Assembly: GCA_021806045.1 (NCBI GenBank)
Contig: JAJZDI010000007.1
Location: 42,803-106,802, forward strand
Source of the DNA: Actinomycetes bacterium
Lineage (GTDB): Bacteria; Actinomycetota; Acidimicrobiia; Acidimicrobiales; RAAP-2
Reading direction: 5' to 3'
DNA length: 64,000 nt
Shown here: one piece after another, positions 2,236 to 60,030 of the stretch
Layout of the letters: each line of letters starts with the position of its first letter
Position numbering within the stretch: position 1 is the first letter of the stretch
Made by a program: the position numbers and the translations under genes
The notes under the pieces: model-generated
What the model was told of the DNA's origin: nothing
Databases searched by the model: none
Seen by the model: only the letters and a program-made list of their open reading frames with translations

Positions 2236-2236
2236 C

Positions 2237-41490: not shown

Positions 41491-41518
41491 GCAGGCGGGG
41501 ACCAGGCTGATCGATCCG

Positions 41519-41952
41519 ATGCGGACCCACTGGCGCGTCCACGTCCTGCAAGGAGCGGTGCGATCCGGCCGTGCCACAGGCACATGACCGTCACCTCCGG
41601 ATTCGGACGCGCCCGGCGCGGCAGCGGACGCCCTGACGTTCCTGGGCACCCGGCAACACAACAACACGTCCATCGAGATCGCGGTCCGCTGGGAAGACAT
41701 TGCGCTCTCCCGAGACCCCCAGGCCGCCCTGACCCTGCAGCAGCTGGCGCTCGACGAGAGCCTCCTCGGCAACCTGCCGGCAGCCGGAACGGCTCTCAAC
41801 CGCGCGCTCGCCTACGGTCCCGACTTCGAGCCCGTATACGCCGACCAGATCTCGTTGGCGCTGCGAGGGGGACGACCCGGCCTCGCCCGCAGCGGAAGAC
41901 CGTGCCTCCGGCCGAGTGGGAGCGCTGGCACACACGTCCCGGATCTCAGCGG
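41519..41952 (+). pseudogene. TPR-like ORF remnant: 22 codons from ATG, in-frame TGA (41585-41587), then 121 coding-like codons without any start codon
   Basis: The frame after the TGA reads ...AADALTFLGTRQHNNTSIEIAVRWEDIALSRDPQAALTLQQLALDESLLGNLPAAGTALNRALAYGPDFEP... with very high third-position G/C. It is absent from the ORF track because there is no ATG/GTG/TTG. Confidence 0.45.
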
Positions 41953-43001
41953 ATGAGGTCCGACACCCAACTCCTCCAGCCGTTCGAGTAGAGGCGGTAG
42001 TCGCCCCTGCGCACCCGTTCGAAGACCTGGGGAACCCGCCTCCAGCGCCTGCGGGGCAGGTCCTGCCGGAATCGCAGCATTTCCGAAAGGCGCTCGAGAG
42101 TTGCTCGGAACGCCGGGCCGGCCCGTGGACTCGGCATCCGCTCGAGGAGTTCGGATACGTACCGGTACATGGCCGCTTCCGCCACCATCTCGTTCGAGGT
42201 GATCTCGGGATCCGTCAGCCTCCGTGCGTAGAAGCGCACGATGCGCCCGTACCGACGCAACCCCGAGCCCGAGTGGCGGAAGTGCGGGAAGCCGACCGCG
42301 TTCCCGCCGTGGAGACGGTAGGCGATGAGGAGCTCGTCGATGGGCTGGAGCTGCGCCTGCATCGCGATCGCGATCGAGATCCAGATGTCATGGGTGATCG
42401 GGGGCCACGGGTCCATACCCGGGAGCAGGCTCGCCCGGAAGGTCAGCGTCGCGCCGGTCACGACCGGGTGCCGCAGGAGGACGTCCAGTGCCCGACCTGA
42501 CCGGACATCCTCCCGATCGGCGGTGGAGAAGCCCGCCGCGTCCCACAGGTGGACCCCGGTCGGTTCGCCGTCACCGTCGATGCACCAGCCGTTGGTGAAC
42601 ACCGCGCCGACCGCAGGATCAGCGTCGAGGGCGGCAACGGCTCGCTCCAGCTTGGCGGGTGCCCAGATGTCGTCCTGGTCGCACAGCGCGATGAGCTCGC
42701 CCGTCGCGTCGCTGATGGCAGCCCAGAAATTGTCGGGGATGCCCAGTCGCCGCCGGTTCTCGTTCACCACCACCGGGAACGGCGCCGACCGGACGAAGTC
42801 CGCCAGGATCGCCAGGGTGTCGTCAGTCGACCCGTCGTCACGCACGACGAGCTCGTCCGGCAGCCGTGTCTGGATCGCGAGGCTCTCCAGCTGGTAGGGG
42901 AGGAAGGCGGCACCGTTGAAGGTGCACATGACGACGGAGACCGTGCTGCCGCCCGGGTCTCCGGCCTGCCGGGGTGATGCGGGAGGAGGCACCGGGGACA
43001 C
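41946..43001 (-). CDS. GT2-family glycosyltransferase (paralog of 53496-54470)
   Basis: VSVVMCTFNG, VVRDDGSTDDT and ALCDQDDIW. The start is uncertain (GTG at 43001 or 42992). Confidence 0.8.
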   Translation of the reverse strand: MSPVPPPASPRQAGDPGGSTVSVVMCTFNGAAFLPYQLESLAIQTRLPDELVVRDDGSTDDTLAILADFVRSAPFPVVVNENRRRLGIPDNFWAAISDATGELIALCDQDDIWAPAKLERAVAALDADPAVGAVFTNGWCIDGDGEPTGVHLWDAAGFSTADREDVRSGRALDVLLRHPVVTGATLTFRASLLPGMDPWPPITHDIWISIAIAMQAQLQPIDELLIAYRLHGGNAVGFPHFRHSGSGLRRYGRIVRFYARRLTDPEITSNEMVAEAAMYRYVSELLERMPSPRAGPAFRATLERLSEMLRFRQDLPRRRWRRVPQVFERVRRGDYRLYSNGWRSWVSDLIR

Positions 43002-43098
43002 TGTACCGGTCAGGCCCGCAGCCGATTCACGGCCGGACCGCCCGGTCGATGACCGACCGGCGATCCGCACGGACTGGAGGGAGCGCTTTCCCGAAGCG

Positions 43099-45003
43099 CT
43101 ACGACAGCACGCCCATGGCCCGCAACTGGTCCACCACCATGTCGGCGGCGGCGGAAGCGGAGACGTGGACGGTGTCGATCCGGATCTCCGGGTGCTCCGG
43201 GACCTCGTAGGGGGAGTCGACCCCGGTGAGGTTGACCAGCTCACCCCTCCGGCCCTTCCGGTAGAGGCCCTTCGGGTCACGGGTTTCGACCACCTCCAGG
43301 GGCGCGTCCACGAACACCTCGCAGAACTCGCCCACCTCCAGCAGCTCACGGGCGAACCGGCGCTCGGCGGCGAACGGAGAGATGAACGACACCAGGACGA
43401 TCAGCCCCGCGTCGACCATCAGCTTGGTCACTTCGGCCACCCGCCGGATGTTCTCCACGCGATCGACCGCGGTGAACCCGAGATCGCGGTTCAACCCCAG
43501 CCGGACGTTGTCCCCGTCGAGGAGGTACGTGTGCGCACCGAGCGCGTGGAGCTGCTTCTCCACCAGGTTGGAGATCGTGGACTTCCCCGCCCCCGGCAGC
43601 CCGGTGAACCAGACGGCGCATGGCCTGTGGCCGCTCAGGACGGCCCGGGCCGCCTTGTCCACGTCCACCGACTGCCATTGCACGCTGTCGGCTCGCCGCA
43701 GGGCGAAATTGAGCAGTCCTGCCCCCAGCGTGGCGTTGGTGAACCTGTCGATGATGATGAAACCGCCCATGTCGCGGTTCTCGCTGTAGGGATCGAAGGG
43801 GACCGCCTGGTTCAGGCGCAGCGAGCAGACCCCGATTTCGTTGAGGGCGAGGGTCGTTGCCGCCAGGTGCTCCATCGTGTTGACGTTCACCTTGAACTTC
43901 GGCCGGCTCAGGGTCACGCCGACGGTCATCGGGCCGACCTTCATGAGGTAGGGGCGCCCGGGGAACATCTCCCGCTCGTGCATCCAGATGACGTGGGCCT
44001 CGAACTGATCAGCCACCTGGGGCGCACGGCCCTCTTCGCAGACGACGTCCCCGCGGCTGACGTCGATCTCGTCCTCGAGGACGAGGGTGACGGCCTGGCC
44101 GACGACGGCTTCGTCCAGGTCGCCGTCGTAGGTCGTGATGCGGGCGATCCGGCTGCGACGCCCGGAAGGGAGCACCTGGATCGGCTGCCCGGTCCGGACG
44201 GTTCCCCCGACGATGGTTCCGCAATAGCCCCGGAAGTCGTGGTCGGGCCGGTTGACCCACTGCACCGGCATCCGGAACGGGCGGTCCCGGGCCTCGTCCT
44301 CGACGTCCACCAGCTCGAGATGACCGAGCAATGTCGGTCCGTGGTACCACGGAGTGTTCGGGCTGGACGCGATGACGTTGTCGCCGCGCAGGGCCGACAC
44401 CGGGATGCAGGCGATCTCGGTGAGGCCGATCCCGGCAGCGAAGGCCCGGTACTCCGACTCGATCCGGTCGAACACGTCTTCGGAGTAGCCGACCAGGTCC
44501 AGCTTGTTGACGGCCACCACCACCCTGCGGATCCCGAGGAGCGAGACCAGGTAGCTGTGTCGCCGGGTCTGGGTGAGGACACCCTTGCGGGCATCGACCA
44601 GGATCACCGCGAGGTCGGCCGTCGACGCCCCCGTGACCATGTTGCGGGTGTACTGCTCGTGGCCGGGGGTGTCGGCCACGATGAACTTCCGCTTCTCGGT
44701 GGCGAAGAACCGGTAAGCGACGTCGATGGTGATCCCCTGCTCCCGCTCGGCCGCCAAACCGTCGACCAGGAGCGCGAAGTCGAGGTCTCCCCCCTGAGTC
44801 CCGATCCGCCTGGAGTCGGCCTCGAGGGCGGCCAGATGGTCCTCGAACACCTGCTGGGATTCGTAGAGGAGGCGACCGATCAAGGTGCTCTTTCCGTCGT
44901 CGACGCTCCCACAGGTGATGAAGCGGAGAAGTGAGGTGCGCTCGTGGGCGTCGAAGTAGGCGTCGATGTCGCTGGTGATGCGCTCGTCACGGGGGAGCGC
45001 CAT
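43099..45003 (-). CDS. cysNC: Bifunctional sulfate adenylyltransferase subunit 1 / adenylylsulfate kinase (CysNC, NodQ-like)
   Basis: GTPase G1 [14 protein letters not shown] and NKLD. The C-terminal APS-kinase P-loop is GLPGAGKST, with LDGDNVR. Confidence 0.95.
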
Positions 45004-45962
45004 CAGAAGTACCCCTCCTGCTTCTTCTTCTCCATCGAGCCCGAGGCTTCGAAGTCGATCACCCGCCCCTGCCGCTCGGACGTGGTGGCGAGCAGCATCT
45101 CCTGGATGATCTTCTGCACCGTGTCGGCTTCGCTCTCGATGGCGCCGGTAAGCGGGTAACAGCCCAGCGTCCGGAAGCGGACACGTCTCTCCACCGGTCG
45201 CTCCCCCGGCTCGAGGGGCATGCGCTCATCATCGACCATGATCAGCGCGCCGTCGCGCTCGACGACCGGCCGCACGGCGGCGTAGTACAGCGGGACGACC
45301 GGGATCTGCTCAAGGTAGATGTACTGCCAGACATCGAGCTCGGTCCAGTTCGAAAGGGGGAACACCCGGATGGTCTCCCCCTGGTTCCGGCGGACGTTGT
45401 AGACCCGCCACAACTCGGGGCGTTGCTGCTTCGGATCCCAACGGTGCTGCGCCGACCGCAGGGAGAAGATCCGCTCCTTGGCCCGCGACTTCTCCTCGTC
45501 CCGGCGAGCGCCCCCGAACGCGACATCGAACCCGTGGAGGTCGAGGGCCTGCTTCAATCCTTCGGTCTTCCACATGTGCGTATGGACGGCGGACCCGTGG
45601 GTGAACGGGTTGATCGCCTGCTCGAGGCAGTCCGGGTTCTGGTGGACGAGCAACTCCATCCCCAGTTCGGCCACCGTCCAGTCCCGGAACTCGTACATGG
45701 CCCGGAACTTCCAGGTGGTGTCCACGTGGAGGAGGGGGAAAGGCGGGACCGAGGGATGAAAGGCCTTCCGGGCCAGGTGGACCATGACCGAACTGTCCTT
45801 CCCGACGGAGTAGAGCATCACCGGGTTCTCGCTCTCGGCGACCGCCTCCCGCAGGATGTGGATGCTCTCGGCCTCGAGGCGCCGGAGATGGGTCAACCGG
45901 CGGGGCGCGACGGCGCCGGCACGAGGAGTGGCCCGCCCGTCGTTCCCATCATCCACAAGCAT
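45003..45962 (-). CDS. cysD: Sulfate adenylyltransferase subunit 2
   Basis: PP-loop SVGKDS and WNQ-type motifs. The C-terminus ends KKKQEGYF. The stop overlaps the cysNC ATG (TGATG). Confidence 0.95.
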
Positions 45963-46262: not shown

Positions 46263-47267
46263 GTGCTGGTGCAGTCCACCCGATCCCCCGATCTCGTGCG
46301 AGCGGCCTGCCGGCACCTCCGCGAAGCCGCTGGATCCGCTCGCCGGCGCATCGCCGACGAACGTGGGCGCCTGCGGGCGGCAGCGCGGCGCTCCGCCGGG
46401 CTCCCATGGAGCGAGGGTGACATCGCTCCTCTCTTCGTCCACCCGATCGAGGGACGCTCGGGGACCACGTTGATGATGAAGCTCCTCGACGTTCCCGAGA
46501 TCGCCTTCGACCGGATCTACCCGTTCGAGAACCGCTACTTCGGCTACCTTGCCCACCTCGTCACGCCGATGTCGGCATCGTTTGATCCCGAGGGCCCGTG
46601 GACGACCTCGGAGATGCTGAGGGGCGACCCGACCCGTTACGGCCCGATCCCGTTCCATGCGTCCTCGCTCGACCCGACCGACTTCCGCATACGGTCCGTC
46701 AGGCACCTGTGGCAGGCCCTCGCCGAGTCGCTCGCCGGGTACAGCCGTACCCCGCTCCGCTACTACGCGGAAAAGGCCTGGGGGAACTCGCTCGAGCTCC
46801 TCGCCGAGGCAGGGATCAAGGCCAAGGTGATCAATCTCGTGCGCGATCCGCGTGACGTCGTCTCGTCCATCCGGGCGATGGACGAGAAGCGGGGCTACTT
46901 CGGCTTCGGCCGGACCGACGATATGAGCGAAGACGATTACCTGCAGTTCGTCGTCGCCACCATGCGTCGCAACCTCGACGCGATGTCATCGGCCGAAGCG
47001 GCGCACGACTGCCGTCTCGTCCGCTACGAGGACATCGTGCGCGACCCGGAGCTCGTCACTCGAGACCTGGGGTCATGGCTCGGTGTCGAGCTCGATGCGG
47101 ACAGGTCGGTGCTGGCAGGCCCCATCTTCGATCGTCATGCCACTTCTTCCAGCGCTGAGCAGTCCATCGGGAAGTGGAAGGTGCGCCTTACCGAGCGAGA
47201 AGTCACCGAGATCTCTCGGGTGCTCGGCGCCAGCATGCAGCGGTTCGGCTACGAAGCATCCGGATGA
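46263..47267 (+). CDS. PAPS-dependent sulfotransferase family protein
   Basis: 5'-phosphosulfate-binding-loop-like GRSGTTLMMKLL and 3'-phosphate motif LVRDPRDVVSS. It is divergent from cysD-cysNC. The GTG start is at 46263 or 46269. Confidence 0.75.
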   Translation: MLVQSTRSPDLVRAACRHLREAAGSARRRIADERGRLRAAARRSAGLPWSEGDIAPLFVHPIEGRSGTTLMMKLLDVPEIAFDRIYPFENRYFGYLAHLVTPMSASFDPEGPWTTSEMLRGDPTRYGPIPFHASSLDPTDFRIRSVRHLWQALAESLAGYSRTPLRYYAEKAWGNSLELLAEAGIKAKVINLVRDPRDVVSSIRAMDEKRGYFGFGRTDDMSEDDYLQFVVATMRRNLDAMSSAEAAHDCRLVRYEDIVRDPELVTRDLGSWLGVELDADRSVLAGPIFDRHATSSSAEQSIGKWKVRLTEREVTEISRVLGASMQRFGYEASG

Positions 47268-48790
47268 ACGCCGGTGGGCACCGGGACCGCGTCGCAGCCG
47301 GCGCCGCGTGGAGCCTCGTCTCGTGGGTGGTCGCCCTCGTCGCCGGACCGGTCGTCGCCGTCCTCGTCGTGCACTCGATCTCGCACCGCCAGTACGGCTC
47401 GTTCTCGGAGGCGACATCGCTCGTTGCGATCCTCGCCGGATTGACCAGCCTCGGGCTCTCGACTGCGGTCATCCAGGTCGCAGTGACCGAGCGCTCCCGT
47501 CGTGGCGATGCCGGGGAGGCCGGCGCCATCAACAGTGCGGTGCGCATCGCCGCGGTGACCACCCTCGCAGGCGTAGTGGTCTCGGCAATGGGGGCAGTCC
47601 TCTTGTACTCGGTGCCGTCGCTCAGGCCCTCGGCTTCCCCGTTCATCGCGCTCATCCCGATCGTCCTGCTCGCTCCGTTCGCCGGCGTCGTGAGCGCCGT
47701 CGCTCGGATTCTCTACCGGCCGCGCCACGTCGCCACGGCCGCGATCGCCGCCCCGATATCGGGAGCGGCGATCATGTTCGCGATCATCGTCAGCGGCCAC
47801 GCGAACGACGTCACCATCGCGGCTGCGACGAGCGCGGCGGCCGTCATCGGCTTCGTCACGCTGGCGGCGACACTGCGGCGGTGGTACCGCGGGATCGACC
47901 GTACGGTGAGGCTCGATGGCGGCTCGGCCCGCCTCCTCGCGTTCGGCATCCCGGCCCTGGTGGGTCACGGATTCGTCTTGACCACCTCGGAGCTCACCGT
48001 CCTGTTGCTCGGATCCTCCCATGGCAGCCGGATCGCGGGCCTGTACACGCCGGCGGCGGCCATGGCGCTCACGGTGGTTGCGATCCCGGCAGCCACCAGC
48101 AGCTTCTACCTACCAGCAGCCACGGACCTCGCCGCACATCGCGACCTCGCCGGGCTTGCCGGGCTCTACCACTGGATCACGCGGTGGAACATCACCCTCG
48201 CGTCGCCGGCGATCGCCGTCCTCCTGGTTGCCCCGAAAGCCATACTCACTGTCGTGTTCGGCCCGGCCTTCGCTTCCATGTGCGGGGTGCTGCGCCTCTT
48301 GATGGTCGGTGTCACGGTGCAGGTTGCGAGCGGGTACAACGGCCTCACGCTCGATGCGTTCGGCCTCCCCAAGGTCGTCGCGGCACGCCAAGGGACCGCC
48401 CTGGCTCTGAGCGTCGTGGCGTGCGTCGTCCTGATCCCGACCTTCGGGGCTGCCGGGGCAGCGATCGCGTGCAGCTTCGCTCTGGTCGCGGCCAACATCC
48501 TCACCTCGGCGGTCCTGGCCCTCCGGTTCCGGATCTGGCCATGGGACCGGGCGACGGGCGGTACGTTTGCCGTCCTCGCCGCAGCAATGGCCATCTCGGC
48601 CGGGATGATCGCCACCATCCACAGCACCTTCTGGCAATGTGTGGTCGTGGCTGCCACGAGCGGCACGGCCACCGGCGTGGCCGCCCTGATCTTCGGGGGC
48701 CGTGCCGAGCGCAGTGCCATCGCCAACCGCCTGCGCCGGCGCTTGTCCCGCAACGGCCTCGTACCGGGCACCGTGGAGGAGGGGAGATGA
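47264..48790 (+). CDS. Polysaccharide flippase (Wzx / MOP-superfamily PST type)
   Basis: 508 aa with about 12-14 hydrophobic helices. It has ATGA overlaps with both flanking genes. Confidence 0.75.
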   Translation: MNAGGHRDRVAAGAAWSLVSWVVALVAGPVVAVLVVHSISHRQYGSFSEATSLVAILAGLTSLGLSTAVIQVAVTERSRRGDAGEAGAINSAVRIAAVTTLAGVVVSAMGAVLLYSVPSLRPSASPFIALIPIVLLAPFAGVVSAVARILYRPRHVATAAIAAPISGAAIMFAIIVSGHANDVTIAAATSAAAVIGFVTLAATLRRWYRGIDRTVRLDGGSARLLAFGIPALVGHGFVLTTSELTVLLLGSSHGSRIAGLYTPAAAMALTVVAIPAATSSFYLPAATDLAAHRDLAGLAGLYHWITRWNITLASPAIAVLLVAPKAILTVVFGPAFASMCGVLRLLMVGVTVQVASGYNGLTLDAFGLPKVVAARQGTALALSVVACVVLIPTFGAAGAAIACSFALVAANILTSAVLALRFRIWPWDRATGGTFAVLAAAMAISAGMIATIHSTFWQCVVVAATSGTATGVAALIFGGRAERSAIANRLRRRLSRNGLVPGTVEEGR

Positions 48791-49707
48791 CCGCACGCAG
48801 CGCGGCTGGATCGGTGATGCGGATCGCGCGCCCCGTCGGCCGACGTGCCCCCCGGATCATCCGGCACCCGGGTAGCGCCATGGCGGAGCTTGCCCTCGCC
48901 GCGCTGGAGGCTTCGCACCCGTTCACCCCGGGGGTCTCCACGTTGACCGGGTTTCCCGTGCGATTCACGCACCCCCACTCGTTTCTCGCCCAGTACGAGG
49001 CCATTTTCAGGAACGAGGCCTACGCCTGCCGGCCCGGCCGGCCCGACCCCGTGATCTTCGACTGCGGAGCGAACATCGGCCTCGCCAGCATCTACTGGCT
49101 GAGTAGGTATCCGGGTGCCCGTATCACCTGTTTCGAACCCGATCCATCGATTGCGGCAGTGCTGCGGGACAACCTCGAGGCAGCACGGGCCCACTTCGGC
49201 CTGGAACGGGTCGGGGAGATGCCGGATACGACGACACCCGAACACGTGCCGTCGACGTCGATCGGTTCGGTCAGGGTCGTCGAGGCAGCCCTGTGGATCG
49301 AGACGGGCTCGAAGTCGTTCACCGAACAGGGTGCTGGCGCCGGCCATCTCGGCGGTGGTGGGCGCGTCGTACCGACCGTCCGTCTTTCGGACTACCTCGA
49401 GGCCCATGTGACCACCGCCGGCGGGCGTGTGGACCTCCTCAAGGTCGACATCGAGGGGGCTGAGGTGGACGTGCTCACCGACTGCGAGCCCTGGCTCGGG
49501 TTCGTCGACGCGCTGTTCGTCGAGTTCCATTCGAGCGCCGGCCGACCCCAGCGCTTCGATGAGCTGGTCGGCATCCTCACCAGAGCGGGGTTCCGGCTCG
49601 CTCTCGAGACGGAATTCGCCCCCCGACACCCCTTCGTGGCTCGAGAGGTGCACGAGGGCTTCGACCTGCAACTCAACGTGTACGCCTACCGGGAGCCGTC
49701 GTCGTGA
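48787..49707 (+). CDS. FkbM-family methyltransferase
   Basis: FDCGANIGLAS SAM motif, ITCFEPDP and VDLLKVDIEGAE. Confidence 0.8.
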   Translation: MTARSAAGSVMRIARPVGRRAPRIIRHPGSAMAELALAALEASHPFTPGVSTLTGFPVRFTHPHSFLAQYEAIFRNEAYACRPGRPDPVIFDCGANIGLASIYWLSRYPGARITCFEPDPSIAAVLRDNLEAARAHFGLERVGEMPDTTTPEHVPSTSIGSVRVVEAALWIETGSKSFTEQGAGAGHLGGGGRVVPTVRLSDYLEAHVTTAGGRVDLLKVDIEGAEVDVLTDCEPWLGFVDALFVEFHSSAGRPQRFDELVGILTRAGFRLALETEFAPRHPFVAREVHEGFDLQLNVYAYREPSS

Positions 49708-49915: not shown

Positions 49916-51097
49916 GTGAGCCCGGTCCGCGTGCTCTTCGTCGGCCACACCGCTGAACCCACGGGCGCACCGATCGCGTTGCTCGGCCTAGTCCGCCAGC
50001 TCGTCGCTGACGGGGAGGTCGAGCCGGTCTTCCTACTACGTCGCGGTGGGCCCCTCGTCGAGCGCTACCGGGAGCTCGGCGAGGTCACGATCCTCGACGC
50101 CGGCTACAAGCACAAGCTCCGCCGGGCCTCCGAGATGGTGAAGGCCGGCCCGGCCTTCGACGCAGCGTACCGGCACGGGCTCGGGGCCTGGTTCCGGGCC
50201 CGCTGCAGAGCCTGGCGCGTCGACGCCATCTACCTCAACACCATCACCCACGGCGACATCGCGGGGCTGCTCTCGACCGTCGGCGTACCCATCATCTGCC
50301 ACGTCCACGAGATGGGCCGGTTCGTCGCCCGCGAAGTGAGCCCTGCACAGTTCCGGTCCCTCATCGACACCGTCAGCCGCTGGGTCGCCGTCTCCACTCC
50401 GGTCGAGGAGATGTTGGTGGAACACGGTGTCGACCGCCGGAAGATCACCCTCGTGTCCGCGAGTGTGGAGATGCCCAAGCCGCTCCCGGACGACGAACGC
50501 GCCGAGTTGCGGAAGCACTCGTTCGGCGTGCCCAGGTCGACACGGGTGCTGGCGACGTGCGGAACACCTTCGTGGACCAAGGGCCCGGAGCTCTTCCTGC
50601 AGCTCGCGCTGCGCCTCAGGCACCTCCGCGCCGACAAGCCCGACCCGTTCCTCGCGGTGTGGATCGGAGCGGATCGCCAGTACCCGGGCACGCTGACCAT
50701 GGAAGAGGACGCGCGCCAGATGGACCTCGCCGGCCATGTGAAGCTCATCGGGTTCCGCCAGGATGCGTCCACACTCCTCGGAGCGGCCGACGTCGTGGCG
50801 AGCACCTCCCGTGAGGACCCGAAACCGCTGGTGATCCTCGAGGCGGCTGCGGCCGGCGTACCGGTCGTCTGTTTCGAAGGCTCCGGGGGCGCCACCGATG
50901 TGGTGCGGGCCGGGGGCGGGCTCATGGTCCCCTACCTCGACGTCGACGCGATGAGCGTCGCCGTCTCCGAGCTGTTCGACGACGCAGACCGCTCAGCCGC
51001 GCTGGGACAGGCGGGGCGTGACTACGTCGCCAACCACGCCACCCACGAGGTCACCACCCCCGAGATCGCGCGGTTGATCCGAGACGCCCTCATGTGA
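49916..51097 (+). CDS. GT4-family glycosyltransferase
   Basis: RVLFVGHTAEPTGAP N-terminus. The C-terminus reads VVASTSREDPKPLVILEAAAAGVPVVCF (E-x7-E). Confidence 0.8.
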   Translation: MSPVRVLFVGHTAEPTGAPIALLGLVRQLVADGEVEPVFLLRRGGPLVERYRELGEVTILDAGYKHKLRRASEMVKAGPAFDAAYRHGLGAWFRARCRAWRVDAIYLNTITHGDIAGLLSTVGVPIICHVHEMGRFVAREVSPAQFRSLIDTVSRWVAVSTPVEEMLVEHGVDRRKITLVSASVEMPKPLPDDERAELRKHSFGVPRSTRVLATCGTPSWTKGPELFLQLALRLRHLRADKPDPFLAVWIGADRQYPGTLTMEEDARQMDLAGHVKLIGFRQDASTLLGAADVVASTSREDPKPLVILEAAAAGVPVVCFEGSGGATDVVRAGGGLMVPYLDVDAMSVAVSELFDDADRSAALGQAGRDYVANHATHEVTTPEIARLIRDALM

Positions 51098-51352: not shown

Positions 51353-52852
51353 CTAGGTGAGCTGGATGGCGGGATCCCGCGTGGCCGACCGGAGGACCAG
51401 CGAGGCGTACCCGGCCGAGAGATCGCCGGCTGCCGCCTGGTTGAACCCGAGCCGCCGCCGGGCCGTCGCATCGAGCGGGTCCCGCGACACCGCCAACTGG
51501 TCCCAAGGGAGCGCGAGCCGGTAGTACCCGGCGTTCCTCTGGGCTTCGACGTCGAGGAAGTCGGACAGCGCGTTGGCGGCGTCGTTCCACATGGGAAGCC
51601 GGCTGTTGGCTGACGCCAACGTCGCCAGGTCGTGGTTGGTGATGCCGGAATTCAGCTGGGTGTTCCCGATCATCACCATCAGGCCAGCGAAGAGGGCCAG
51701 GGCGACGAGCACCACCTGCGCGGCGATCCTCGGCGTGGACGGCCGGTCGGTGACACCCTGCGATGACCGGGAACCCGGCGGAAGGTCGCGCTCGAATGCA
51801 CCGACGGCTGCCGCACCCAGGGCGAGAAAGGCGAGGCCGGTGGCCGTGAGGTCGAGGGGCTCGAGCAGCCCGCCGGCGAAGAGCGCGATCGAGTAGAGCA
51901 GGAGCGCATCCCGGGCCCGACGGAACGCGGGGACCAACCAGGCCACGAACAGGGCCAGGCCGAGGAGTCCCGTCGTGACGGCGATCTCGACCAGGATGTT
52001 GTGGGTGTCGGGGAACACACCGTCGTGCAGGACCGTCGTGACCGACCGGTAGGGAAGTGTCGCGGACTCGGACTGACCGGGCCCCGACCCGAAGACCGGA
52101 TGGGCCTCCACGGCGTGCGGGCTGGCGGTCCAGATCCGCATCCGGGGCCCGAATGCCCCACTTGCACCCTCGGACGTGACCGTCCGGAAGGGGACGGAGG
52201 TCCCCAGGCGCACCAGGGACTGGATGGCCAGGCCCACCAGGAGCCCGCCGCCGGCGGCGACGGCGAAGGCCACGGCCGCCTTGCCTCGACGCGCCACCAC
52301 CACCCAGATGAACAGCCCCTCGATGAACAACAGGCTGTAGCGCTCCCCCGTCAGGTACGTCTCCACGCCGAGCCCGCCGACCATGACCCACCAGCTCCAG
52401 ACGAAGGACCCGAGCAACGACCAGCCCTGCCCGCCCACCTCGAGAAGGGTCACCCCCGCGTTGAGTAGCTCGAGGACGAGCAGGCCCTTGCCGAGGAGCG
52501 ACGCGCCCGATGTCCCGACACCGGTTCCGAGGGCCCAGAGCGCGGCCAGCCCCACCAGGGAGAGCCAGCCCGTACCGACCTCGTTGGCGCCGAAGAACCC
52601 GATCAGCGGTGCGGTCGACAGGGCGGCGGAGACCGAGGCCACCACCAGGAAGGCGACGGCTGCTCGGGCTGACCACGAGACCGCCGAGCGCCAGGTGCGC
52701 AGCGCCAGGATCGGCAGACCGAGCGCCGCCAGCACGAGGAAGACGGTGGCTCTCGGCCCGAAGTACACCGTCCGCTCGTTCGGACGGGCGGCGACCTGGC
52801 CGGCCAGGACGGCACCGACGGCGACCACCCACGCCAACACGCTCGGCGGCAA
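51353..52852 (-). CDS. O-antigen polymerase/ligase-family (Wzy-like) membrane protein with C-terminal TPR-like tail; possibly disrupted
   Basis: About 10 TM helices and a periplasmic-loop motif HAVEAHPVFGSGPGQ...DTHNILVE. The only start is a TTG without an SD. See the flanking features. Confidence 0.65.
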   Translation of the reverse strand: MPPSVLAWVVAVGAVLAGQVAARPNERTVYFGPRATVFLVLAALGLPILALRTWRSAVSWSARAAVAFLVVASVSAALSTAPLIGFFGANEVGTGWLSLVGLAALWALGTGVGTSGASLLGKGLLVLELLNAGVTLLEVGGQGWSLLGSFVWSWWVMVGGLGVETYLTGERYSLLFIEGLFIWVVVARRGKAAVAFAVAAGGGLLVGLAIQSLVRLGTSVPFRTVTSEGASGAFGPRMRIWTASPHAVEAHPVFGSGPGQSESATLPYRSVTTVLHDGVFPDTHNILVEIAVTTGLLGLALFVAWLVPAFRRARDALLLYSIALFAGGLLEPLDLTATGLAFLALGAAAVGAFERDLPPGSRSSQGVTDRPSTPRIAAQVVLVALALFAGLMVMIGNTQLNSGITNHDLATLASANSRLPMWNDAANALSDFLDVEAQRNAGYYRLALPWDQLAVSRDPLDATARRRLGFNQAAAGDLSAGYASLVLRSATRDPAIQLT

Positions 52853-53166
52853 CTCGACGGCCGGCCCGTGCGCGGCCTGGTCGCCCCTGCCGGTGCATCT
52901 GGGCCGGTCGGCTCGGACGTCGGGTGTTTCGCTCGAGCGGCACGACCGGTCTTCACCGGCGGATCGTCGGTCGGCACCTTCGTGGCCACCGACTTCCGAG
53001 CAGCCGACGGGGTCGCCGCATCCGCCGCGGCCAGGGTGGTGGCCGGTTCCGTTGCCTGCTCGGCACCGGTCGGGGACGCCGGCTGCTCCGCCCTATTTGC
53101 ACGCTGGCGAGCAGCCGCCTGCCGGTTCTTCGCCTGCTTCTTCTTGCAATCGTTAGCCGTCGCCAT
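52853..53166 (-). other. Lys/Ala/Pro-rich ORF start (MATANDCKKKQAKNRQAAARQRANR...) that runs out of frame into the wzy-like gene
   Basis: ATG at 53166 with GAGGGGA 7 nt upstream. The frame is +1/-1 relative to the wzy-like ORF, whose own frame is open but start-less for 80 codons over the same interval. Confidence 0.4.
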
Positions 53167-53495: not shown

Positions 53496-54470
53496 TCAGA
53501 GCAGGAAGAGATCCCGCTCCCACGCGAACCTCCCGATCGCGCCCGATGCGTAGGCGCCACTACGGACCCGTCCCAGCACGAGGGGCAGGCGGCGGATGAA
53601 CCGGTCGGGAAGCGCGAGCTGGAATCGGAGCAGATCCAGCTCACGGTCGATGCGCTGGCGGGTGGCCGGTGCGAGCAGTGGGTCGGCCGCCTGGTCCGCA
53701 CGTTCCAGGAGCGCCTGCCGCAGGTGGAACTGATGTGCCAGCGTCTCCTGGCGCAGCCCCCGGTCGCGCAGGTGGCGGGCGAGGGCCGGCAAGGCGGCGG
53801 TCGGATGCAGGCCGATGGCGTTGGAGGCGTGCAACCGGTAGAAGATCAAGGGCTCGTCGATCGGCTTCACCCGAGCCTTCGACGCGATCGCCGCCGAGAT
53901 CCAGTAGTCGTGGGTGATCGGCGGCGCCGGTCGGAGGAAGGTGAGCAAGGACGAGCGGAAGGTCACCGTGGCCCCCGTCACCACCGGGCGCCTCAGCAGC
54001 ACATCGAGCTCGTGTCCCGAACGGAACTGCGCCAGCACGTCCTCGGTGAGGCCGGCGAGCTCCCACAGCGTCTGCCCCGTCGAGGCGCCTCGCTCGTCGA
54101 TGCAGCGCCCGTTGCTGAACGTCGCGCCAACGTGCGGATCGTCGTCGAGAACGTCGATCGCTCGCTGCAGCCGGGACGGGTGCCAAACATCGTCCTGATC
54201 GCAGAGTGCGATGAGGTCGCCCCGGGCGTCGCCGATGGCGGCCCAGAAGTTCGCCGGGATGCCCAGTCTCTGCTGATTGACGGAGATCCGCACCGGCACC
54301 GCTGATCGATGGGCGAAGTCGTCGAGGACCTCCCGGGTGGCATCGTGGGATGCGTCGTCACGAACCACGATTTCGTCCGGCGGGCAGGTCTGGCCGGCGA
54401 GACTGTCGAGCTGGGTCGCCAAGAAGTCGGCTCCGTCGAACGTGCAGAGGACCACGGAGACCGAGCTCAC
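53496..54470 (-). CDS. GT2-family glycosyltransferase (paralog of 41946-43001)
   Basis: VSVVLCTFDG, VVRDDASHDAT and ALCDQDDVW. It is colinear with the other copy over the full length (roughly 55-60% identical by eye). The GTG start is at 54470. Confidence 0.8.
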   Translation of the reverse strand: MSSVSVVLCTFDGADFLATQLDSLAGQTCPPDEIVVRDDASHDATREVLDDFAHRSAVPVRISVNQQRLGIPANFWAAIGDARGDLIALCDQDDVWHPSRLQRAIDVLDDDPHVGATFSNGRCIDERGASTGQTLWELAGLTEDVLAQFRSGHELDVLLRRPVVTGATVTFRSSLLTFLRPAPPITHDYWISAAIASKARVKPIDEPLIFYRLHASNAIGLHPTAALPALARHLRDRGLRQETLAHQFHLRQALLERADQAADPLLAPATRQRIDRELDLLRFQLALPDRFIRRLPLVLGRVRSGAYASGAIGRFAWERDLFLL

Positions 54471-54994: not shown

Positions 54995-55933
54995 TCAGGT
55001 TCCGGCGCGGCGAGCCGAGCCCCGCGCTCCGACCGGGCCCGTGACCATCGCCCGCCACGCCGACAGCGCGCGTGACGGCCGGCGGGCGCTCAGCGTGGCC
55101 GCCCGCACCGCGGCGGCACCGACCGCCATCACCCACTGGCTGGCTCTGAACCACGTCGCCGCGAACGTCATCGTCCCCCGCCACCATTCGATCTCCCGGT
55201 CCCACGACGACGTGCTCGAGCCCCCGGCATGGTGCACGGCCCACGGAACCGGCAGGGCCACCAGGCGCCATCCGGCCTCGGTCCAGCGTTTTGACAGGTC
55301 CGTGTCCTCCCCGTAGAGGAAGAAGCGCTGGTCGAACCCGCCGACCTCGTCAAAGGCCGCCCGCCGAACCAGGAGCGCAGTGGCTCCGAGCGCGGCGGTG
55401 TCCGCCGGACCGTCCGGCACCCGCTCGACGTGGTCGGCGACACCGGGGAAACGCAGGGCCATCGACCGCACGGGGCGCCACCTGAGCAGGCTCCGCAGGC
55501 GGAGTGCCCGGCCCCAGAGATGGACCGGACCCAGCAGGATCCCCTGGCTCCGCTCGGGCAGCCCGGTCGCCTCGTCGATGATCACGCCCTGGCAGGCAGC
55601 GATCCGTGGCTGGGCGTCGAGCAGCGCCATGCCCTCCTCGACCGCGCCAGGCACCAGCGCCGCGTCGGGGTTCATCAGGAGCACGTAGGCGGCACCGGTC
55701 AGCGCCATACCCCGGTTGTGCCCGGCACCGAAGCCCGGGTTGGACGGGTCGCGGACCACGACGGCACCCATCGACGACGCCACCTCATCGGAGCCGTCGT
55801 CCCCGTGGTCGACCACCACCACCGTTCCCATCCCCCGGACCGCCCGCAACGAGGCGAGGCAGCGACCCACGTCGTCACGGCTGGCGTAGGTCACGACCAC
55901 GGCATCCACCAGAGGATAGGGCTCCCCGGTCAC
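54995..55933 (-). CDS. GT2-family glycosyltransferase (WbbL/rhamnosyltransferase-like)
   Basis: DAVVVTYASRDD, VVVDHGDDGSD, GFGAGHN, and FFLYGEDTDL (the ED motif). Confidence 0.8.
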   Translation of the reverse strand: MTGEPYPLVDAVVVTYASRDDVGRCLASLRAVRGMGTVVVVDHGDDGSDEVASSMGAVVVRDPSNPGFGAGHNRGMALTGAAYVLLMNPDAALVPGAVEEGMALLDAQPRIAACQGVIIDEATGLPERSQGILLGPVHLWGRALRLRSLLRWRPVRSMALRFPGVADHVERVPDGPADTAALGATALLVRRAAFDEVGGFDQRFFLYGEDTDLSKRWTEAGWRLVALPVPWAVHHAGGSSTSSWDREIEWWRGTMTFAATWFRASQWVMAVGAAAVRAATLSARRPSRALSAWRAMVTGPVGARGSARRAGT

Positions 55934-57111
55934 GGGCTCCCACCGGCCAGGTCCGGCGGACCAGGTGAGCTCGTTCCGACATCCGGCGGACCGGACGACC
56001 GGGCCCCGAGCTCGGGTGGATCGAACAGGGCGCGGACCCGTACGGCCATGTGCTCGTGCGTGTACCGGAGACGGACCTCGTCCTGCGCTTGGCAGCCCAG
56101 ATCCCGCGCGCCGGCGGGGTCATCGAGCAGCGCGACGATCTGGCGGGCGAACGGGCGGCCTACCTCCGCGACCCGGACCGGCAATCCGGGAGCGAAGCCG
56201 GCGGCAGCGGCCGGGGAGATCACCTGCGGCCGGCCGGCGGCAGCGGCTTCGAGCACCTTGATCTGCATACCGGTGGCGAAGGGCAGGGGAGCTATGGAGA
56301 GGGTGGCGCGGACGACCAGGCGGCCGAACCCTGCGAAGTCGGGCACCAGCTCCGCCCCCATCGCCCGCACCAGGTCGCGCACCTCCCGTGTCGGTCGCCG
56401 GCCCGCCACACACAGGGACGACCCCGGTCGGAGCCGCAACACTTCCGGCCAGATGGAGGTGGCCAGTTCCCGGATCGCGGCGACGTTCGGGCCGTAGTCG
56501 AGGGTGCCGGTGAACAACACGTCGACCGGGGACTCCCCCTCGACCAGACGTGGAAGCTCCCGGCCGACACGAGCAACCGGCAGGGTGATGGGGAACCAGG
56601 CTGCCCCGAGCACGCCGGCATCGCGGTAGCCGGCTGCGACGGTCGACACGCCGACGGCTCTCGCCGCCGATTCGGCCCGGGCCATCGTCCGCGCCAGCAC
56701 ATGCCAGCCGGCCCGGTACAGGCGGCGTTGCTCGATGAAGGCCCGCTGGCCGTAGCTCTCGCTCAACCGGTCGACGTAGTCGAGCACCACCGGCACGCCT
56801 CCGGGGAGGGTGGTGGGGTCGAATGCCCGGAGCGAGATCACCACCACGCCGTCGGGCGCGATCACGTCGAGACGGCGGCGCAGTGCGGGACCGGACCACG
56901 CCAACGACTCCAGTGAGACGGCACCGGTGAGCGCGGCACCGGCGCGCCCGAGACCGCGGGGGAGGAGTCGTTGGCCGTCGGGAACCAGGGGCACGGCGAC
57001 CACCTCGACACCCGAGAGGGCGAGCACGTCCTGCCACCATTCCAGGCGCGTCGTCGCTCCCCCACCGCGCGTGACGGCGTGGACGACCGCGACCCGTTGC
57101 ATGGTGGCCAT
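55930..57111 (-). CDS. GT4-like (GT-B) glycosyltransferase
   Basis: The C-terminal half reads VLFTGTLDYGPN...GMQIKVLEAAAAGRPQVISP. It has a 4-nt overlap with the downstream GT2. Confidence 0.7.
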   Translation of the reverse strand: MATMQRVAVVHAVTRGGGATTRLEWWQDVLALSGVEVVAVPLVPDGQRLLPRGLGRAGAALTGAVSLESLAWSGPALRRRLDVIAPDGVVVISLRAFDPTTLPGGVPVVLDYVDRLSESYGQRAFIEQRRLYRAGWHVLARTMARAESAARAVGVSTVAAGYRDAGVLGAAWFPITLPVARVGRELPRLVEGESPVDVLFTGTLDYGPNVAAIRELATSIWPEVLRLRPGSSLCVAGRRPTREVRDLVRAMGAELVPDFAGFGRLVVRATLSIAPLPFATGMQIKVLEAAAAGRPQVISPAAAAGFAPGLPVRVAEVGRPFARQIVALLDDPAGARDLGCQAQDEVRLRYTHEHMAVRVRALFDPPELGARSSGPPDVGTSSPGPPDLAGGSP

Positions 57112-57371: not shown

Positions 57372-57417
57372 TTTTCAGGCCGGAGGGGAAGCAGGAACGA
57401 GGGCGAGGGGGAAGGAC

Positions 57418-57513
57418 ATGACGACGCGGCCTACAGCCAGGTCGTCACGCGGCCCGGTGTCTCCCGTCCTCGGGCGTCCGGCGCCCAACGGGGTCCACGA
57501 GGTCAACCGATGA
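57418..57513 (+). CDS. Candidate 31-codon upstream ORF (MTTRPTARSSRGPVSPVLGRPAPNGVHEVNR) coupled to the sugar transferase
   Basis: The ATG is preceded by the purine tract GGAGGGGAAGCAGGAACGAGGGCGAGGGGGAAGGAC. Its TGA overlaps the transferase ATG (ATGA at 57510-57513). Confidence 0.3.
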   Translation: MTTRPTARSSRGPVSPVLGRPAPNGVHEVNR

Positions 57514-58841
57514 GGCGCCTCCGGCACCTGGGGGTCGCTCTCGCCCCGATCGTGGTGGTGCTGGTGCTCGCCGAGCTCCACGCCCACCTGATCGGCCATT
57601 ACCGCTTCACCGGGACCCCGCGGTTCGCATGGACGGCTGCCTACACCGTGCTGATCGAGCTGTCTGCCTACCTGGCGGGGATGTTCGATGACCAGCGGTC
57701 CGCGATGTCCGCCATCCGGTCCGCGCTCGGAGCGGCACTGGGCGGGGGCATCGCCATCTCCCTCTTCCAGCTGATCCTGGGCTCGCTGCTCTTGCCCCGG
57801 GCGGTGATCTTCGGCTCGGCACTGCTCCTGTTCGGCTTCGACCTCGCCGTGGGGCTCTCCGCAAACCGGGACCTCCGCGACGGGGGTGGCGACCGGGTGC
57901 TCGGGGTGCTCAGCCCCGACGAGGCCATGCCGCTTGAGGCCGACTTCGAGCGCGTTCTCGAACGGCCGGCCCACGTCGTGGGGGTGCTCGAACCGAGCGA
58001 GGTGGCGACCACCAGTGGGGCCGGCGCGGAGTCGCCCGGACTGCTCCTGCTCGACGCGGGCATCCGGATGCGGGCGACCGTGGTGGTGCTCGGCCGCAAA
58101 GCGCTCGCCGACGAGTCCATCGTCGCCCAGGCGGCCCTGCTGCACGGCCGAGGCGTGCGGGTGCGGACCCTCGGCCTCTTCTACGACGAATGGTTCGGAA
58201 AGCTGCCCATTGCCGACCTCGAGCGGGTGTCGCTCATGTTCGACATCCAGGAGCTCCACGCTCTCGGCTACGCCCGGCTGAAGCGGATCGTCGACTTGAC
58301 GGCCGCCTCGGTCGGGTTGGTGGTCCTGGCGGTGGTCGCCCCGCTGGTGTGGGTCCTCGACCAGTTCGGCAATCGGGGGCCGCTGTTCTTCCGCCAGACC
58401 CGGGTGGGCAAGGGAGGGGAACCGTTCTCCATCGTGAAGTTCCGCACCATGCCGCCCACGACGGAGCCCACCGAGTGGACCCGGGAGTCGGACCCCCGCA
58501 TCGGCGTGCTCGGAAAGTGGATGCGCAGGTTCCACATCGACGAGCTCCCGCAGTCGATCAACGTCCTGAAGGGTGAGTTGTCGTTGGTGGGTCCCCGGCC
58601 CGAGCAGCCGCGCTACGTCGAGGAGCTGCTCCAGAAGATCCCCTTCTACGACGTCCGTCACCTGGTGTTGCCGGGGATCACCGGTTGGGCTCAGGTCAAG
58701 TTCCCCTACGGTGCCAGCGTGGAGGACGCCTTGGAGAAGCTCCAGTACGAGTTCTTCTACCTCCGCCACCAGGGTCCGATGCTCGATGCCCGCATCCTCG
58801 CCCGCACCGTCCGCACGGTGCTGCGGGCCGGGGGGAGATGA
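57510..58841 (+). CDS. Undecaprenyl-phosphate sugar-1-phosphate transferase (WbaP/EpsB-type bacterial sugar transferase)
   Basis: Four N-terminal TM helices. The C-terminal catalytic domain has KRIVDL, GPLFFRQTRVG, FRTM, DELPQ and LVGPRPE. Confidence 0.9.
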   Translation: MRRLRHLGVALAPIVVVLVLAELHAHLIGHYRFTGTPRFAWTAAYTVLIELSAYLAGMFDDQRSAMSAIRSALGAALGGGIAISLFQLILGSLLLPRAVIFGSALLLFGFDLAVGLSANRDLRDGGGDRVLGVLSPDEAMPLEADFERVLERPAHVVGVLEPSEVATTSGAGAESPGLLLLDAGIRMRATVVVLGRKALADESIVAQAALLHGRGVRVRTLGLFYDEWFGKLPIADLERVSLMFDIQELHALGYARLKRIVDLTAASVGLVVLAVVAPLVWVLDQFGNRGPLFFRQTRVGKGGEPFSIVKFRTMPPTTEPTEWTRESDPRIGVLGKWMRRFHIDELPQSINVLKGELSLVGPRPEQPRYVEELLQKIPFYDVRHLVLPGITGWAQVKFPYGASVEDALEKLQYEFFYLRHQGPMLDARILARTVRTVLRAGGR

Positions 58842-59018
58842 GCGCGGCCCGGCCATGCCTCCCGGAGCCGCGCCGTGGCAGAGGCCCGGGCGGCAAGGCC
58901 TAGGACGCTGCCGGAGTAGGGCGCCTCAGACTGGGGATCGGTCGGGCACTTCGCTCCGGCCGTGGCGTCGCCGCTGCCGAGCTCGCTGCGGTCGTGACGA
59001 GGATCGGTCACCGGTCAT

Positions 59019-59048
59019 GCACGTGGGGCGCTATCGCCCCCCACGTGC
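59019..59048. repeat. Perfect 10-bp-stem hairpin GCACGTGGGG-N10-CCCCACGTGC
   Basis: The arms are exact reverse complements. The hairpin lies 40 nt beyond the stop of the transposase remnant, so it could be a terminator or an IS-end structure. Confidence 0.6.
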
Positions 59049-59086
59049 GGCCATCAGGTCTCCTGGGCGTTGCGGTGATCGCCTGG

Positions 59087-59780
59087 TCAGGCGCTCGTGA
59101 GGTTCCAGGCGCCCAGGTGGCGGTCGAGACCGAGCGCGGCCAGCCGGGCCCAGTTGAGGGCGCCGGCGCGGGTGTCGAGGTCAGTGGCGATCCGTTCCTT
59201 GCCCCGGGTCCGGGCATGGCGTCCGCCCCAGCTCTGCCTGACGAAGTGGGAGATCTTGCCCTCGACGACGGGCCGGTTGGCCCGGTAGCGCTCTTTCCAG
59301 CCGGGGTCTTGCTGGTCGGCCCGGGCCTGGGCCAGGAGGCCCTCGTGGGGGTGGACCGAGATGCTGCGTCCGGCCCTCGACTTGGTGCAGGCCTGGCGCA
59401 TCGGACAGGTTCGGCAGTGGATCTTGAACGAGGCCGTCCCACGTTTGTCGCGTGTCGCGTTGATGGTCACGGCCTGTCCGGCCGGGCACGTCACGGTGTT
59501 GTGCCCGGTGTCGACCCGGAACTGGTCCTTGGTGAACAGTCCGGTCGAGTTGCGCACCGGCGGGACCGGCGGGACCTTGGCCGTGACGGTGAAGCCCCGT
59601 GCTCCAAGGGCGTGGCGGGTGGCACCGTCCGCGTGGGCGGAGTCGCCGAACACCTCGGGCTCGTCTTGTGCGTCGGCCAACGAGGCCACCAGGTCATCTC
59701 TGGAGGAGCGCAGCACGTCAAGGGGGGCTACAGGCCGGTTCGGCTTGTCTCCGGTGACGGTGCCGGGTGCATGACCGCAT
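59087..59780 (-). mobile_element. 3' remnant of an IS1182-family DDE transposase gene
   Basis: ...EVFGDSAHADG...TVTCPAGQAV...CRTCPMRQACTKSRAGRSISVHPHEGLL...WKERYRANRPVVEGKISHF...GGRHARTRG...NWARL matches the C-terminal half of IS1182-type transposases. The N-terminal ~300 aa are absent. Confidence 0.7.
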
Positions 59781-60030
59781 CATGGGCGCGCTGACAGAGC
59801 TGTCCGACCAGGTCGGAGCTCGAGGGGGCAGGCAAGGCCGGCCGGAGGCCGCCCGCAGGGGCAGCCTTGGCGGCACGGTCAGTGACGCCTCACATCATGA
59901 TGTCCGAAGCCGGGCCGCAACCAGGTGGACTCGATCAGATGCGCGGTCTCGCCGCAGAGCGGGGACCATGACCTCGAACGAGCTCGCACCGGGTCGCGTC
60001 CGGTCCGTCCGCTGGATCCGGGGTGACCGA

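Follow-up and report, generated by a model that had tools for sequence, protein, structure and literature searches.

A probably acquired, strain-variable glycan island inside the purine gene cluster of an uncultured actinobacterium

The window analysed here, a 64-kb stretch of contig JAJZDI010000007.1 from an uncultured member of the Acidimicrobiales (all coordinates are window positions unless another contig is named), carries an 18,534-bp block of polysaccharide genes at 41495–60028, hereafter the island, within a cluster of purine biosynthesis genes. Lists of open reading frames (ORFs) are dominated by shadow frames because the window is about 73% GC; genes were called from the GC signal at third codon positions (GC3 frame plot) and then typed with Pfam and NCBIfam. 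On the left lie, on the minus strand, pyrE (37251–37835), purM (37832–38923) and purF (38932–40395), assigned by Pfam, NCBIfam and synteny in relatives, and then, on the plus strand, a resident gene for a PHP-family phosphoesterase (40642–41490; Pfam PHP) similar to TrpH and 3′,5′-nucleoside bisphosphate phosphatases. On the right lie the conserved purL (60031–62301, minus strand; Pfam AIRS, AIRS_C and FGAR-AT_linker), a conserved gene of 146 amino acids (aa) between purL and purQ (62549–62989, plus strand), purQ (63100–63786, minus strand) and a partial purS (63786–64000, minus strand). Twelve population contigs (L001–L012), recovered by exact-protein look-ups and 99.2–100% identical to the window, run on upstream of purS into purC, purB, purD and purA, so that the island splits a large purine cluster. 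The initial annotation had placed the island between purF–purM and purL and had described the purine block as lying entirely on the minus strand. Both statements hold for the pur genes themselves, except that the PHP gene stands between purF and the island, and that the 146-aa gene interrupts purL and purQ on the opposite strand.

The island begins with the 3′ stub of a polymerase gene (wzy2, 41588–41956, plus strand), a pseudogene without a start codon that was recognised by homology to the sister-lineage contig L097 described below, and with a GT2 glycosyltransferase gene (GT2a, 41946–42929, minus strand; Pfam Glycos_transf_2, E = 1e-24). Two genes for sulfate activation follow on the minus strand, a cysN–cysC fusion encoding the ATP sulfurylase GTPase subunit and adenosine 5′-phosphosulfate (APS) kinase (43099–45003; NCBIfam NF004035, Pfam GTP_EFTU and APS_kinase) and cysD, encoding the ATP sulfurylase small subunit (45003–45962; Pfam PAPS_reduct, E = 2e-54). 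The plus strand then encodes a sulfotransferase of the Sulfotransfer_3 family, dependent on 3′-phosphoadenosine 5′-phosphosulfate (PAPS; 46263–47267; Pfam E = 4e-15), a multi-pass membrane protein resembling Wzx flippases of the MOP family (47264–48790; weak NCBIfam match), an FkbM-family methyltransferase (48787–49707; Pfam Methyltransf_21, E = 1e-15) and a GT4 glycosyltransferase (GT4a, 49931–51097; Pfam Glycos_transf_1, E = 1e-18). On the minus strand these are followed by a damaged polymerase gene (wzy1, 51158–53166, with an open ORF at 51353–52852; Pfam Wzy_C and alignment to the sister lineage), GT2b (53496–54470; Pfam E = 1e-23, 85% aa identity to contig L093), GT2c (54995–55933; Pfam, 81% aa identity in contig L106) and GT4b (55930–57102; Pfam Glyco_trans_1_4). 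At the right end stand a priming polyprenyl-phosphate hexose-1-phosphate transferase with 4+1 hydrophobic segments (57510–58841, plus strand; Pfam Bac_transf, E = 1e-53; TIGR03025, E = 3e-73) and a fragment of an IS1182 insertion sequence (IS) transposase (59087–59779, minus strand; Pfam DDE_Tnp_1_6, NF033551). GT2a and GT2b are paralogues, forming in-register repeats that are 73% identical at the nucleotide (nt) level with a spacing of 11,520 bp. This inventory, including the gene coordinates, is essentially that of the initial annotation, and the ORF-free gaps reported there are present as well, at 643, 524, 407 and 300 bp.

The genes for sulfation, modification and export form a coherent group. 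The CysN–CysC fusion scores 1017 bits on NF004035 (cutoff 715), and CysD is 88% identical (aa) to its counterpart in the sister lineage, with a ratio of nonsynonymous to synonymous substitution (dN/dS) of 0.17. cysD and the sulfotransferase gene are divergently transcribed 300 bp apart; the latter overlaps wzx by 4 bp, and the FkbM and GT4 genes follow. The sulfotransferase belongs to an uncharacterised family with 37 matches, its best match in the PDB being the CurM polyketide sulfotransferase domain (E = 0.002). The family alignment conserves G64-R65-x-G67-x-T69 and V193-RDPRD198, which we take to be the PAPS-binding 5′-PSB and 3′-PB motifs. A start at ATG 46473 (a 264-aa call) was considered and rejected, as it would remove the conserved GRxGxT loop; because this motif lies upstream of that ATG, the start was placed near 46263. 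The Wzx-like protein has about 12–14 hydrophobic segments, and both an 82%-identical orthologue and syntenic homologues at 36–38% identity carry PF01943 (Polysacc_synt). The order sulfotransferase–Wzx–FkbM–GT4 recurs at 36–52% aa identity in other high-GC contigs of actinobacterial type, where the module lies at another site, beside His_Phos_1–DUF3090–GGDEF genes, with cysDNC not nearby.

Polysaccharide clusters that contain PAPS-synthesis genes alongside a sulfotransferase bear what has been described as the hallmark of sulfated polysaccharide synthesis (PMC11641403), and the island has genes for ATP sulfurylase and APS kinase as well as a sulfotransferase with putative PAPS-binding motifs. 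It also has an initiating transferase and several glycosyltransferases (three GT2, two GT4), as is typical of Wzx/Wzy loci, and encodes the Wzy_C domain, in genes that are damaged. From this gene content we infer that the product would be a sulfated, methylated heteropolysaccharide made by a Wzx/Wzy-type pathway. Among bacterial sulfated polysaccharides, those of cyanobacteria are the best established (synechan, PMC8205485), and such polymers have been described as essentially cyanobacterial (PMC8205485, PMC13390465). Sulfated capsules have also been reported in marine Gram-negative bacteria (PMC11641403, PMC11766843), and the sulfated polysaccharides of actinomycetes have so far been predicted, not proven (PMC13390465).

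The insertion is best seen by comparing the purF–purL interval among relatives. A PurF scan with one genome per GTDB species yielded 80 related loci, onto which the window proteins were mapped. purL was present in 60 of these 80 species loci, and in 51 of the 60 Acidimicrobiales loci that contain it, purL ends less than 300 bp from the PHP gene, or from purF where the PHP gene is absent. The PHP gene lies next to purF in 36 relatives, where it is convergent with purL. Island genes were found at the purL junction in none of the related loci, and the spacer between the PHP and purL stop codons measures 14–137 bp in the 14 closest relatives, compared with 18.5 kb in the window. A search with the PHP protein further recovered L104 and L103, contigs that come from independent samples, have an identical 82-bp spacer and lack the island. 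L104 matches the window at 96.0% nt identity in the PHP flank and 96.9% in the purL flank, and thus represents a strain at about the species level with it. Since homology to L104 and L103 stops at 41494 and resumes at 60029 (blastn), the island is delimited as 41495–60028. The right junction is spanned by population contigs L001–L003 and the left one by L007–L009 and L012; because these are separate assemblies, with 99.2–100% identity, the junctions are not an assembly artefact. L101 (PHP protein 71% aa identical), the next relative after the sister lineage, also has an empty site. The purL gene of L103 (1714–3955) is about 95% identical to that of the window over the last 800 bp and 70–80% identical beyond; this mosaic reflects either a recombination breakpoint within purL or a chimera of the metagenome assembly.

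In more distant relatives, unrelated genes occupy the same junction, namely a 1235-aa NHL/fn3 protein (L025), an acyl-CoA dehydrogenase (L078) and a dihydrouridine synthase (L048 and L052). The convergent purL/PHP spacer therefore appears to tolerate insertions repeatedly. The idea that the junction is a hotspot for polysaccharide genes was rejected, given that the relatives' fillers are of these other kinds.

The island also differs from its surroundings in composition. Its GC content is 0.698 against 0.738 in the neighbouring core; per gene, the median GC is 0.692 against 0.743 (Mann–Whitney p = 1.6e-4) and the median GC3 0.874 against 0.935 (p = 2.6e-4). The tetranucleotide profile deviates over 42–58 kb, so that GC, GC3 and tetranucleotide usage all shift over about 41.5–60 kb. 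A similar difference is seen in the sister lineage, whose island has a GC content of 0.692 compared with 0.732 for its own core. The AT-richer patches that had been reported inside the island were not borne out: it holds no discrete 100-bp patch below 58% GC, and it is the island as a whole that is 4–5 points lower. Likewise, no att-like or direct repeats were found near 41.5 and 59.8 kb, where the initial annotation had proposed to look for them, and no direct repeats flank the 18.5 kb. There is no tRNA gene in the 64 kb and no integrase or recombinase gene among the island ORFs. Of the features of classical integrative islands, atypical composition and sporadic distribution are thus present, and an integrase, a tRNA gene and direct repeats are not. 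Comparison with the empty site revealed no target-site duplication, and inside the island, the stretch immediately left of the IS included, no trace of the 82-bp spacer scored higher than shuffled controls.

Related islands allow the acquisition to be placed in time. In the sister lineage (L097–L100; PHP protein 89% aa identical, core 86.8% nt identical over 9.2 kb), L097 has an island that is homologous to that of the window but differs in content; it starts at the same site, immediately behind the PHP stop codon. It comprises, in order, an intact 701-aa Wzy protein, a 108-aa ORF, a 280-aa GT2, cysNC, cysD, the 5′ part of the sulfotransferase gene and a 710-aa Wzy protein. The segments shared by the two islands are 84–87% identical (nt) compared with 86.8% for the core, and their synonymous divergence (dS) is 0.30–0.39 compared with 0.29–0.61. 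As the island is as diverged as the core, it was in place before the window and L097 lineages split. With dN/dS values of 0.15–0.39, the island genes appear to have mostly been under purifying selection. Between conserved breakpoints at 41872 and 42930, the two lineages show a cassette swap, with GT2a in the window and the 108-aa ORF plus the 280-aa GT2 in L097. A weak match (E = 4e-4) links the 108-aa ORF (L097 11762–12088) to the C-terminus of a Mutator-family transposase, which makes it the second trace of an IS in these related loci.

A third lineage (L093), 82–87% identical (nt) to the window, has the sulfotransferase, wzx, GT4a and GT2b genes; its FkbM gene is cut to the first 98 codons, wzy is absent and an rfbF-like gene follows. 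A fourth (L106 and L107), recovered by a metagenome scan with the priming enzyme, is rearranged. Because truncated remnants occur in each lineage, the differences between lineages seem to have arisen largely by deletion. L106 also contains, at 3873–4482 and amid glycan genes, fragments of purM, pyrE and a Lipoprotein_15 gene (75–88% nt identity), which implies either that the locus was extensively rearranged or that the pur flank was duplicated and the copy has decayed.

Within the window itself, decay is most evident in the two polymerase genes. Positions 41603–41872 are 87% identical (nt) to L097 11276–11545, and the wzy2 stub shares 81% aa identity with residues 554–646 of the sister's intact 701-aa Wzy_C protein. 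This stretch had been described as a start-less TPR remnant. That it is a remnant without a start was upheld; a free-standing TPR gene at 41519–41952 was rejected, as it has no Pfam match at E ≤ 0.01 and contains an in-frame TGA at 41585, and the remnant is rather what is left of the 3′ end of another Wzy-family gene, whose C-terminal extension has sub-threshold TPR similarity (E = 0.02–0.1). The lesions of wzy1 were scored against the sister's 710-aa protein by tblastn and alignment. Near 52902/3, the loss of 1 nt shifts the first ~100 codons out of frame, 129 nt are deleted in frame at 52400, and a TAC>TAG change creates a nonsense codon at 51353–51355 (IQLT* in the window, IQLTYTNLVET in the sister), past which the homologous tail can be read down to 51158. 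Three other population contigs have a further 1-nt deletion at 52453, and single-nucleotide polymorphism density among the population contigs is 8–18 per kb at 52–54 kb compared with 0–5 across the rest of the island. The wzy genes and the IS aside, the island genes are full length relative to their orthologues. Because most of them are intact and under apparent purifying selection, decay is partial and concentrated on the polymerase genes. Since both wzy genes are damaged, the polymerisation step is probably compromised in the window genome, and the present copy is probably impaired in polymer production. The earlier view of a decaying island thus agrees with the wzy2 stub, the frameshift and nonsense codon of wzy1, the truncated IS1182 and the segment losses in sister lineages.

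At the purL edge lies a defective IS1182-family element (59002–60032, minus strand), recognised by the transposase fragment, a hairpin and a 21-mer resembling an inverted repeat (IR). In agreement with the initial annotation, the transposase is truncated: the fragment covers only positions 302–488 of the 488 of NF033551 (120 bits, cutoff 270), and the N-terminal 300 model positions are missing. The IR-like 21-mer GATCGGTCACCGGTCATGCAC is at 59002–59022, and its reverse complement is split into two perfect 11-mers (59767–59777 and 60022–60032) that lie 244 bp apart, the outer half overlapping the purL stop codon. GATC stands at both outer ends (59002–59005 and 60029–60032), the right one being core sequence by the purL stop. 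A strong GC-rich hairpin (59019–59048; −51 kcal/mol in a 101-nt context, z = −4.5) follows the transposase stop at a distance of 40 bp. No other copy of the IS end sequence was found in the window and 185 fetched loci, where only the same population matched, and no fetched locus holds an intact IS1182 copy. Our tentative reading is that the IS inserted at an existing junction after the island was in place and was then internally deleted; it is kept tentative because there is no other copy for comparison. The IS looks like a passenger, with nothing pointing to its having moved the island. The 244-bp filler has an 18-nt imperfect inverted repeat of its own (59805–59822 and 59979–59996), which suggests that a small element may have landed in the IS end. 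In population variant L003, one nt has been inserted into the hairpin.

Taken together, the empty site, the composition and the lesions make it likely that 41495–60028 is an accessory, strain-variable glycan locus that was horizontally acquired and has since diversified and eroded separately in each lineage. A horizontally acquired and decaying glycan island is also what the initial annotation had proposed; the refinements are that the gain is old, that the IS is a passenger and that erosion is partial and lineage-specific. We suggest that an ancestor of this Acidimicrobiales lineage acquired the locus, which would have inserted in the short spacer between the convergent PHP and purL genes and split a compact purine supercluster (purA-D-B-C-S-Q-x-L / PHP-purF-M-pyrE). 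As far as the gene families allow a sequence of steps to be proposed, CysD and CysN–CysC would convert sulfate to PAPS, the membrane phosphoglycosyl transferase would prime polyprenyl phosphate, and the three GT2 and two GT4 enzymes would assemble a repeat unit with about six sugars at most. The Sulfotransfer_3 enzyme would then add sulfate from PAPS and the FkbM enzyme methyl groups, Wzx would move the unit across the membrane, and a Wzy-family protein with a TPR-like tail would polymerise or ligate it. Later, in the window genome, one wzy gene was reduced to a stub and the other gained its frameshift and nonsense mutation; IS1182 may have entered at the purL edge and been internally deleted. 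In the sister lineage the sulfotransferase 3′ half disappeared along with the wzx, FkbM and GT4 genes, and in the third lineage FkbM and wzy did; the near-conspecific strain has no island at all.

Several points weigh against this reading. About 57 bp of the 82-bp spacer of the empty site have no counterpart in the window, and the island is therefore not a clean cut-and-paste insertion. A tree of the form ((window, L104), L097) requires a gain and a loss or, less simply, two gains; the empty allele of L104 is most simply explained by loss after the gain or by the import of an allele without the island. For the right junction of the sister lineage, a search for purL homologues gave no full-length protein near the expected ~88% identity, and the best candidate, L102, ends 95 bp after purL. 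With regard to the product, the scanned island ORFs include no chain-length regulator (PCP/Wzz) or tyrosine kinase, although such a gene could lie elsewhere in the genome, the island has no nucleotide-sugar genes, and the Wzx-like protein has no Pfam match and a full-length but weak match to the NCBIfam MOP flippase model (E = 3e-4). The sulfated product, too, is predicted from gene content.

The alternative that survives best, which we nevertheless regard as rather unlikely, is a replacement flexible island, that is, a glycotype locus whose cassettes are swapped through recombination in the pur flanks, the window version and the empty version both being recent imports. This concept has been described (PMC4033161), and it would account for the different mixes of a shared gene pool in the window, L097, L093 and L106 (three to four lineages), for the clean exchange of GT2a against the 108-aa ORF and 280-aa GT2, and for an empty allele in a strain 96–97% identical to the window. 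The window and L097 do have different glycan content at the same position, at the PHP junction. However, the same site has been demonstrated for L097 only, the flanks of L093 and L106 being unplaced or rearranged. The sole signal of recombination in the flanks is the L103 mosaic, where identity drops from about 95% to 70–80% near 60830, and this could be an assembly chimera. Moreover, the shared segments have diverged like the core in both identity and dS, which argues against recent transfer between the sampled lineages, and the wzy2 stub, the 5′ half of the sulfotransferase gene and the 98 5′ codons of FkbM point to deletions rather than to replacement of whole cassettes.

A second alternative concerns the product. 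It could be argued that no sulfated polysaccharide is made, with cysD and cysNC serving general sulfate assimilation and the sulfotransferase acting on a lipid or small molecule. Two observations would permit this: the sulfotransferase has no close characterised relative beyond the CurM domain, and the copy number of cysDN was judged from the window alone. We consider it improbable, since the order sulfotransferase–wzx–FkbM–GT4 is kept in other polysaccharide clusters, cysD is divergent from the sulfotransferase gene and is part of the sister lineage's island as well, and a Pfam scan found no cysH, sulfite reductase or sulfate transporter in the island. In addition, actinobacteria commonly assimilate sulfate via APS reductase (compare CysH and CysNC of Mycobacterium tuberculosis), which leaves PAPS for sulfation.

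A recent, IS1182-mediated insertion, with the island as a composite or one-ended transposon, is very unlikely. The IS fragment within the last 1 kb of the island, the IR-like end abutting the purL stop codon and the Mutator-family remnant at the cassette junction of the sister lineage might suggest such an origin. However, there is a single, defective IS copy, the left edge has neither a second copy nor a matching IR, and no direct repeat surrounds the 18.5 kb. GATC on both sides of the IS-like unit fits a later, simple IS insertion into an existing junction, L106 has the priming-gene end without an IS, and the island is older than the lineage split. Finally, an ancestral place of the glycan locus in the pur region, with loss from almost every relative, is effectively refuted, despite the extra (unrelated) genes at the junction in L025, L078, L048 and L052, by the tight junction in 51 of 60 species across the order with island genes in none, by the atypical composition in both island-bearing lineages and by the homologous sulfotransferase–Wzx–FkbM–GT4 clusters at a different chromosomal site elsewhere.

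The acquired locus is an ordinary kind of glycan island and of sulfated-polysaccharide cluster, and no new type of system. The capsule cluster of Vibrio sp. KMM 8419 (PMC11641403) likewise combines extra cysD, cysN and cysC functions with sulfotransferases and shows traces of mobile elements. That Gram-negative system differs in its ABC-transporter (Kps) export and its three sulfotransferases, whereas the island is of the Wzx/Wzy type, has one sulfotransferase and a fused CysNC, belongs to an uncultured actinobacterium and is described here from gene content. The xss cluster for synechan in Synechocystis PCC 6803 (PMC8205485) is a Wzx/Wzy cluster on accessory DNA (a megaplasmid) in which glycosyltransferases and sulfotransferases make a sulfated exopolysaccharide. 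It has PCP, OPX and dedicated regulators, all absent from the island; conversely, its gene list and the text of PMC8205485, in which 'PAPS' does not occur, indicate no PAPS-synthesis genes, while the island has cysD/cysNC and FkbM. The wps-1 cluster of Actinoplanes missouriensis (PMC13390465) is an actinobacterial Wzx/Wzy cluster with sulfotransferases, a methyltransferase and a predicted sulfated product, a likeness of gene content. Its two sulfotransferases belong to other families, it also encodes Wzz and a kinase-like protein, and sporangium formation depends on it. With the replacement flexible genomic islands or glycotype loci of aquatic bacteria (PMC4033161), the island shares a fixed position between core genes, lower GC and variable content. 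Here, in contrast, shared segments co-diverge with the core, deletions leave remnants and an empty allele exists, and the island looks more like the erosion of one acquired locus than the free swapping of intact alternatives. As for the IS1182 family, the remnant has its C-terminal DDE_Tnp_1_6 region (model positions 302–488); unlike family members, it lacks the N-terminal 300 positions, and its candidate inverted repeat is split by 244 bp.

More broadly, we tentatively speculate that sulfotransferase–Wzx–FkbM–GT4 cassettes, here with their own PAPS genes, could equip uncultured Acidimicrobiales and related Actinomycetota to produce surface polysaccharides that are sulfated and O-methylated, and that a strong pressure for diversification and loss, for example from phage, might keep filled, variant and empty alleles in one population. 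A single site with filled, variant and empty alleles offers a cleanly delimited example of how a glycan locus enters, diversifies and erodes in uncultured actinobacteria. To a phylum whose sulfated polymers are as yet predictions, it contributes a candidate pathway for sulfated polysaccharides that brings its own PAPS supply, together with a divergent, uncharacterised sulfotransferase family; no new kind of element or mechanism is revealed.

Some further observations concern the neighbourhood of the island. The PHP protein is homologous to 3′,5′-nucleoside bisphosphate (pAp) phosphatases and RNase AM (NCBIfam NF041577, 184 bits, below the cutoff; PDB matches 3E0F, 7UG9 and 2YB1, of which 2YB1 and 7UG9 point to these enzymes). 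pAp is a by-product of PAPS-dependent sulfation, and a PAPS-consuming island here adjoins a possible pAp-clearing enzyme. Since the PHP gene is ancestral at this position, the adjacency may be a coincidence. The 146-aa gene, opposite in strand to its neighbours purQ and purL, is rich in K, R and E, has no Pfam or NCBIfam match, and keeps its place in most of the 80 related loci of the Acidimicrobiales (40–71% aa identity). The divergent promoter region between it and purL (62381–62630) is the region's only strongly AT-rich stretch, down to 49% GC. A scan of the whole window for structured RNAs gave no Rfam match. Positions 1–6000 form a second low-GC stretch (0.67) with an island-like tetranucleotide profile and genes for a HipA-like toxin kinase (2227–3747) and a GNAT acetyltransferase (935–1681), and are probably another accessory region. 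Lastly, a very long ORF (13190–17122) holds tandem repeats at 16334–17088 (126 nt × 4.8; 390 nt × 1.9, 92% identical), and similar repeats occur at the end of L106.

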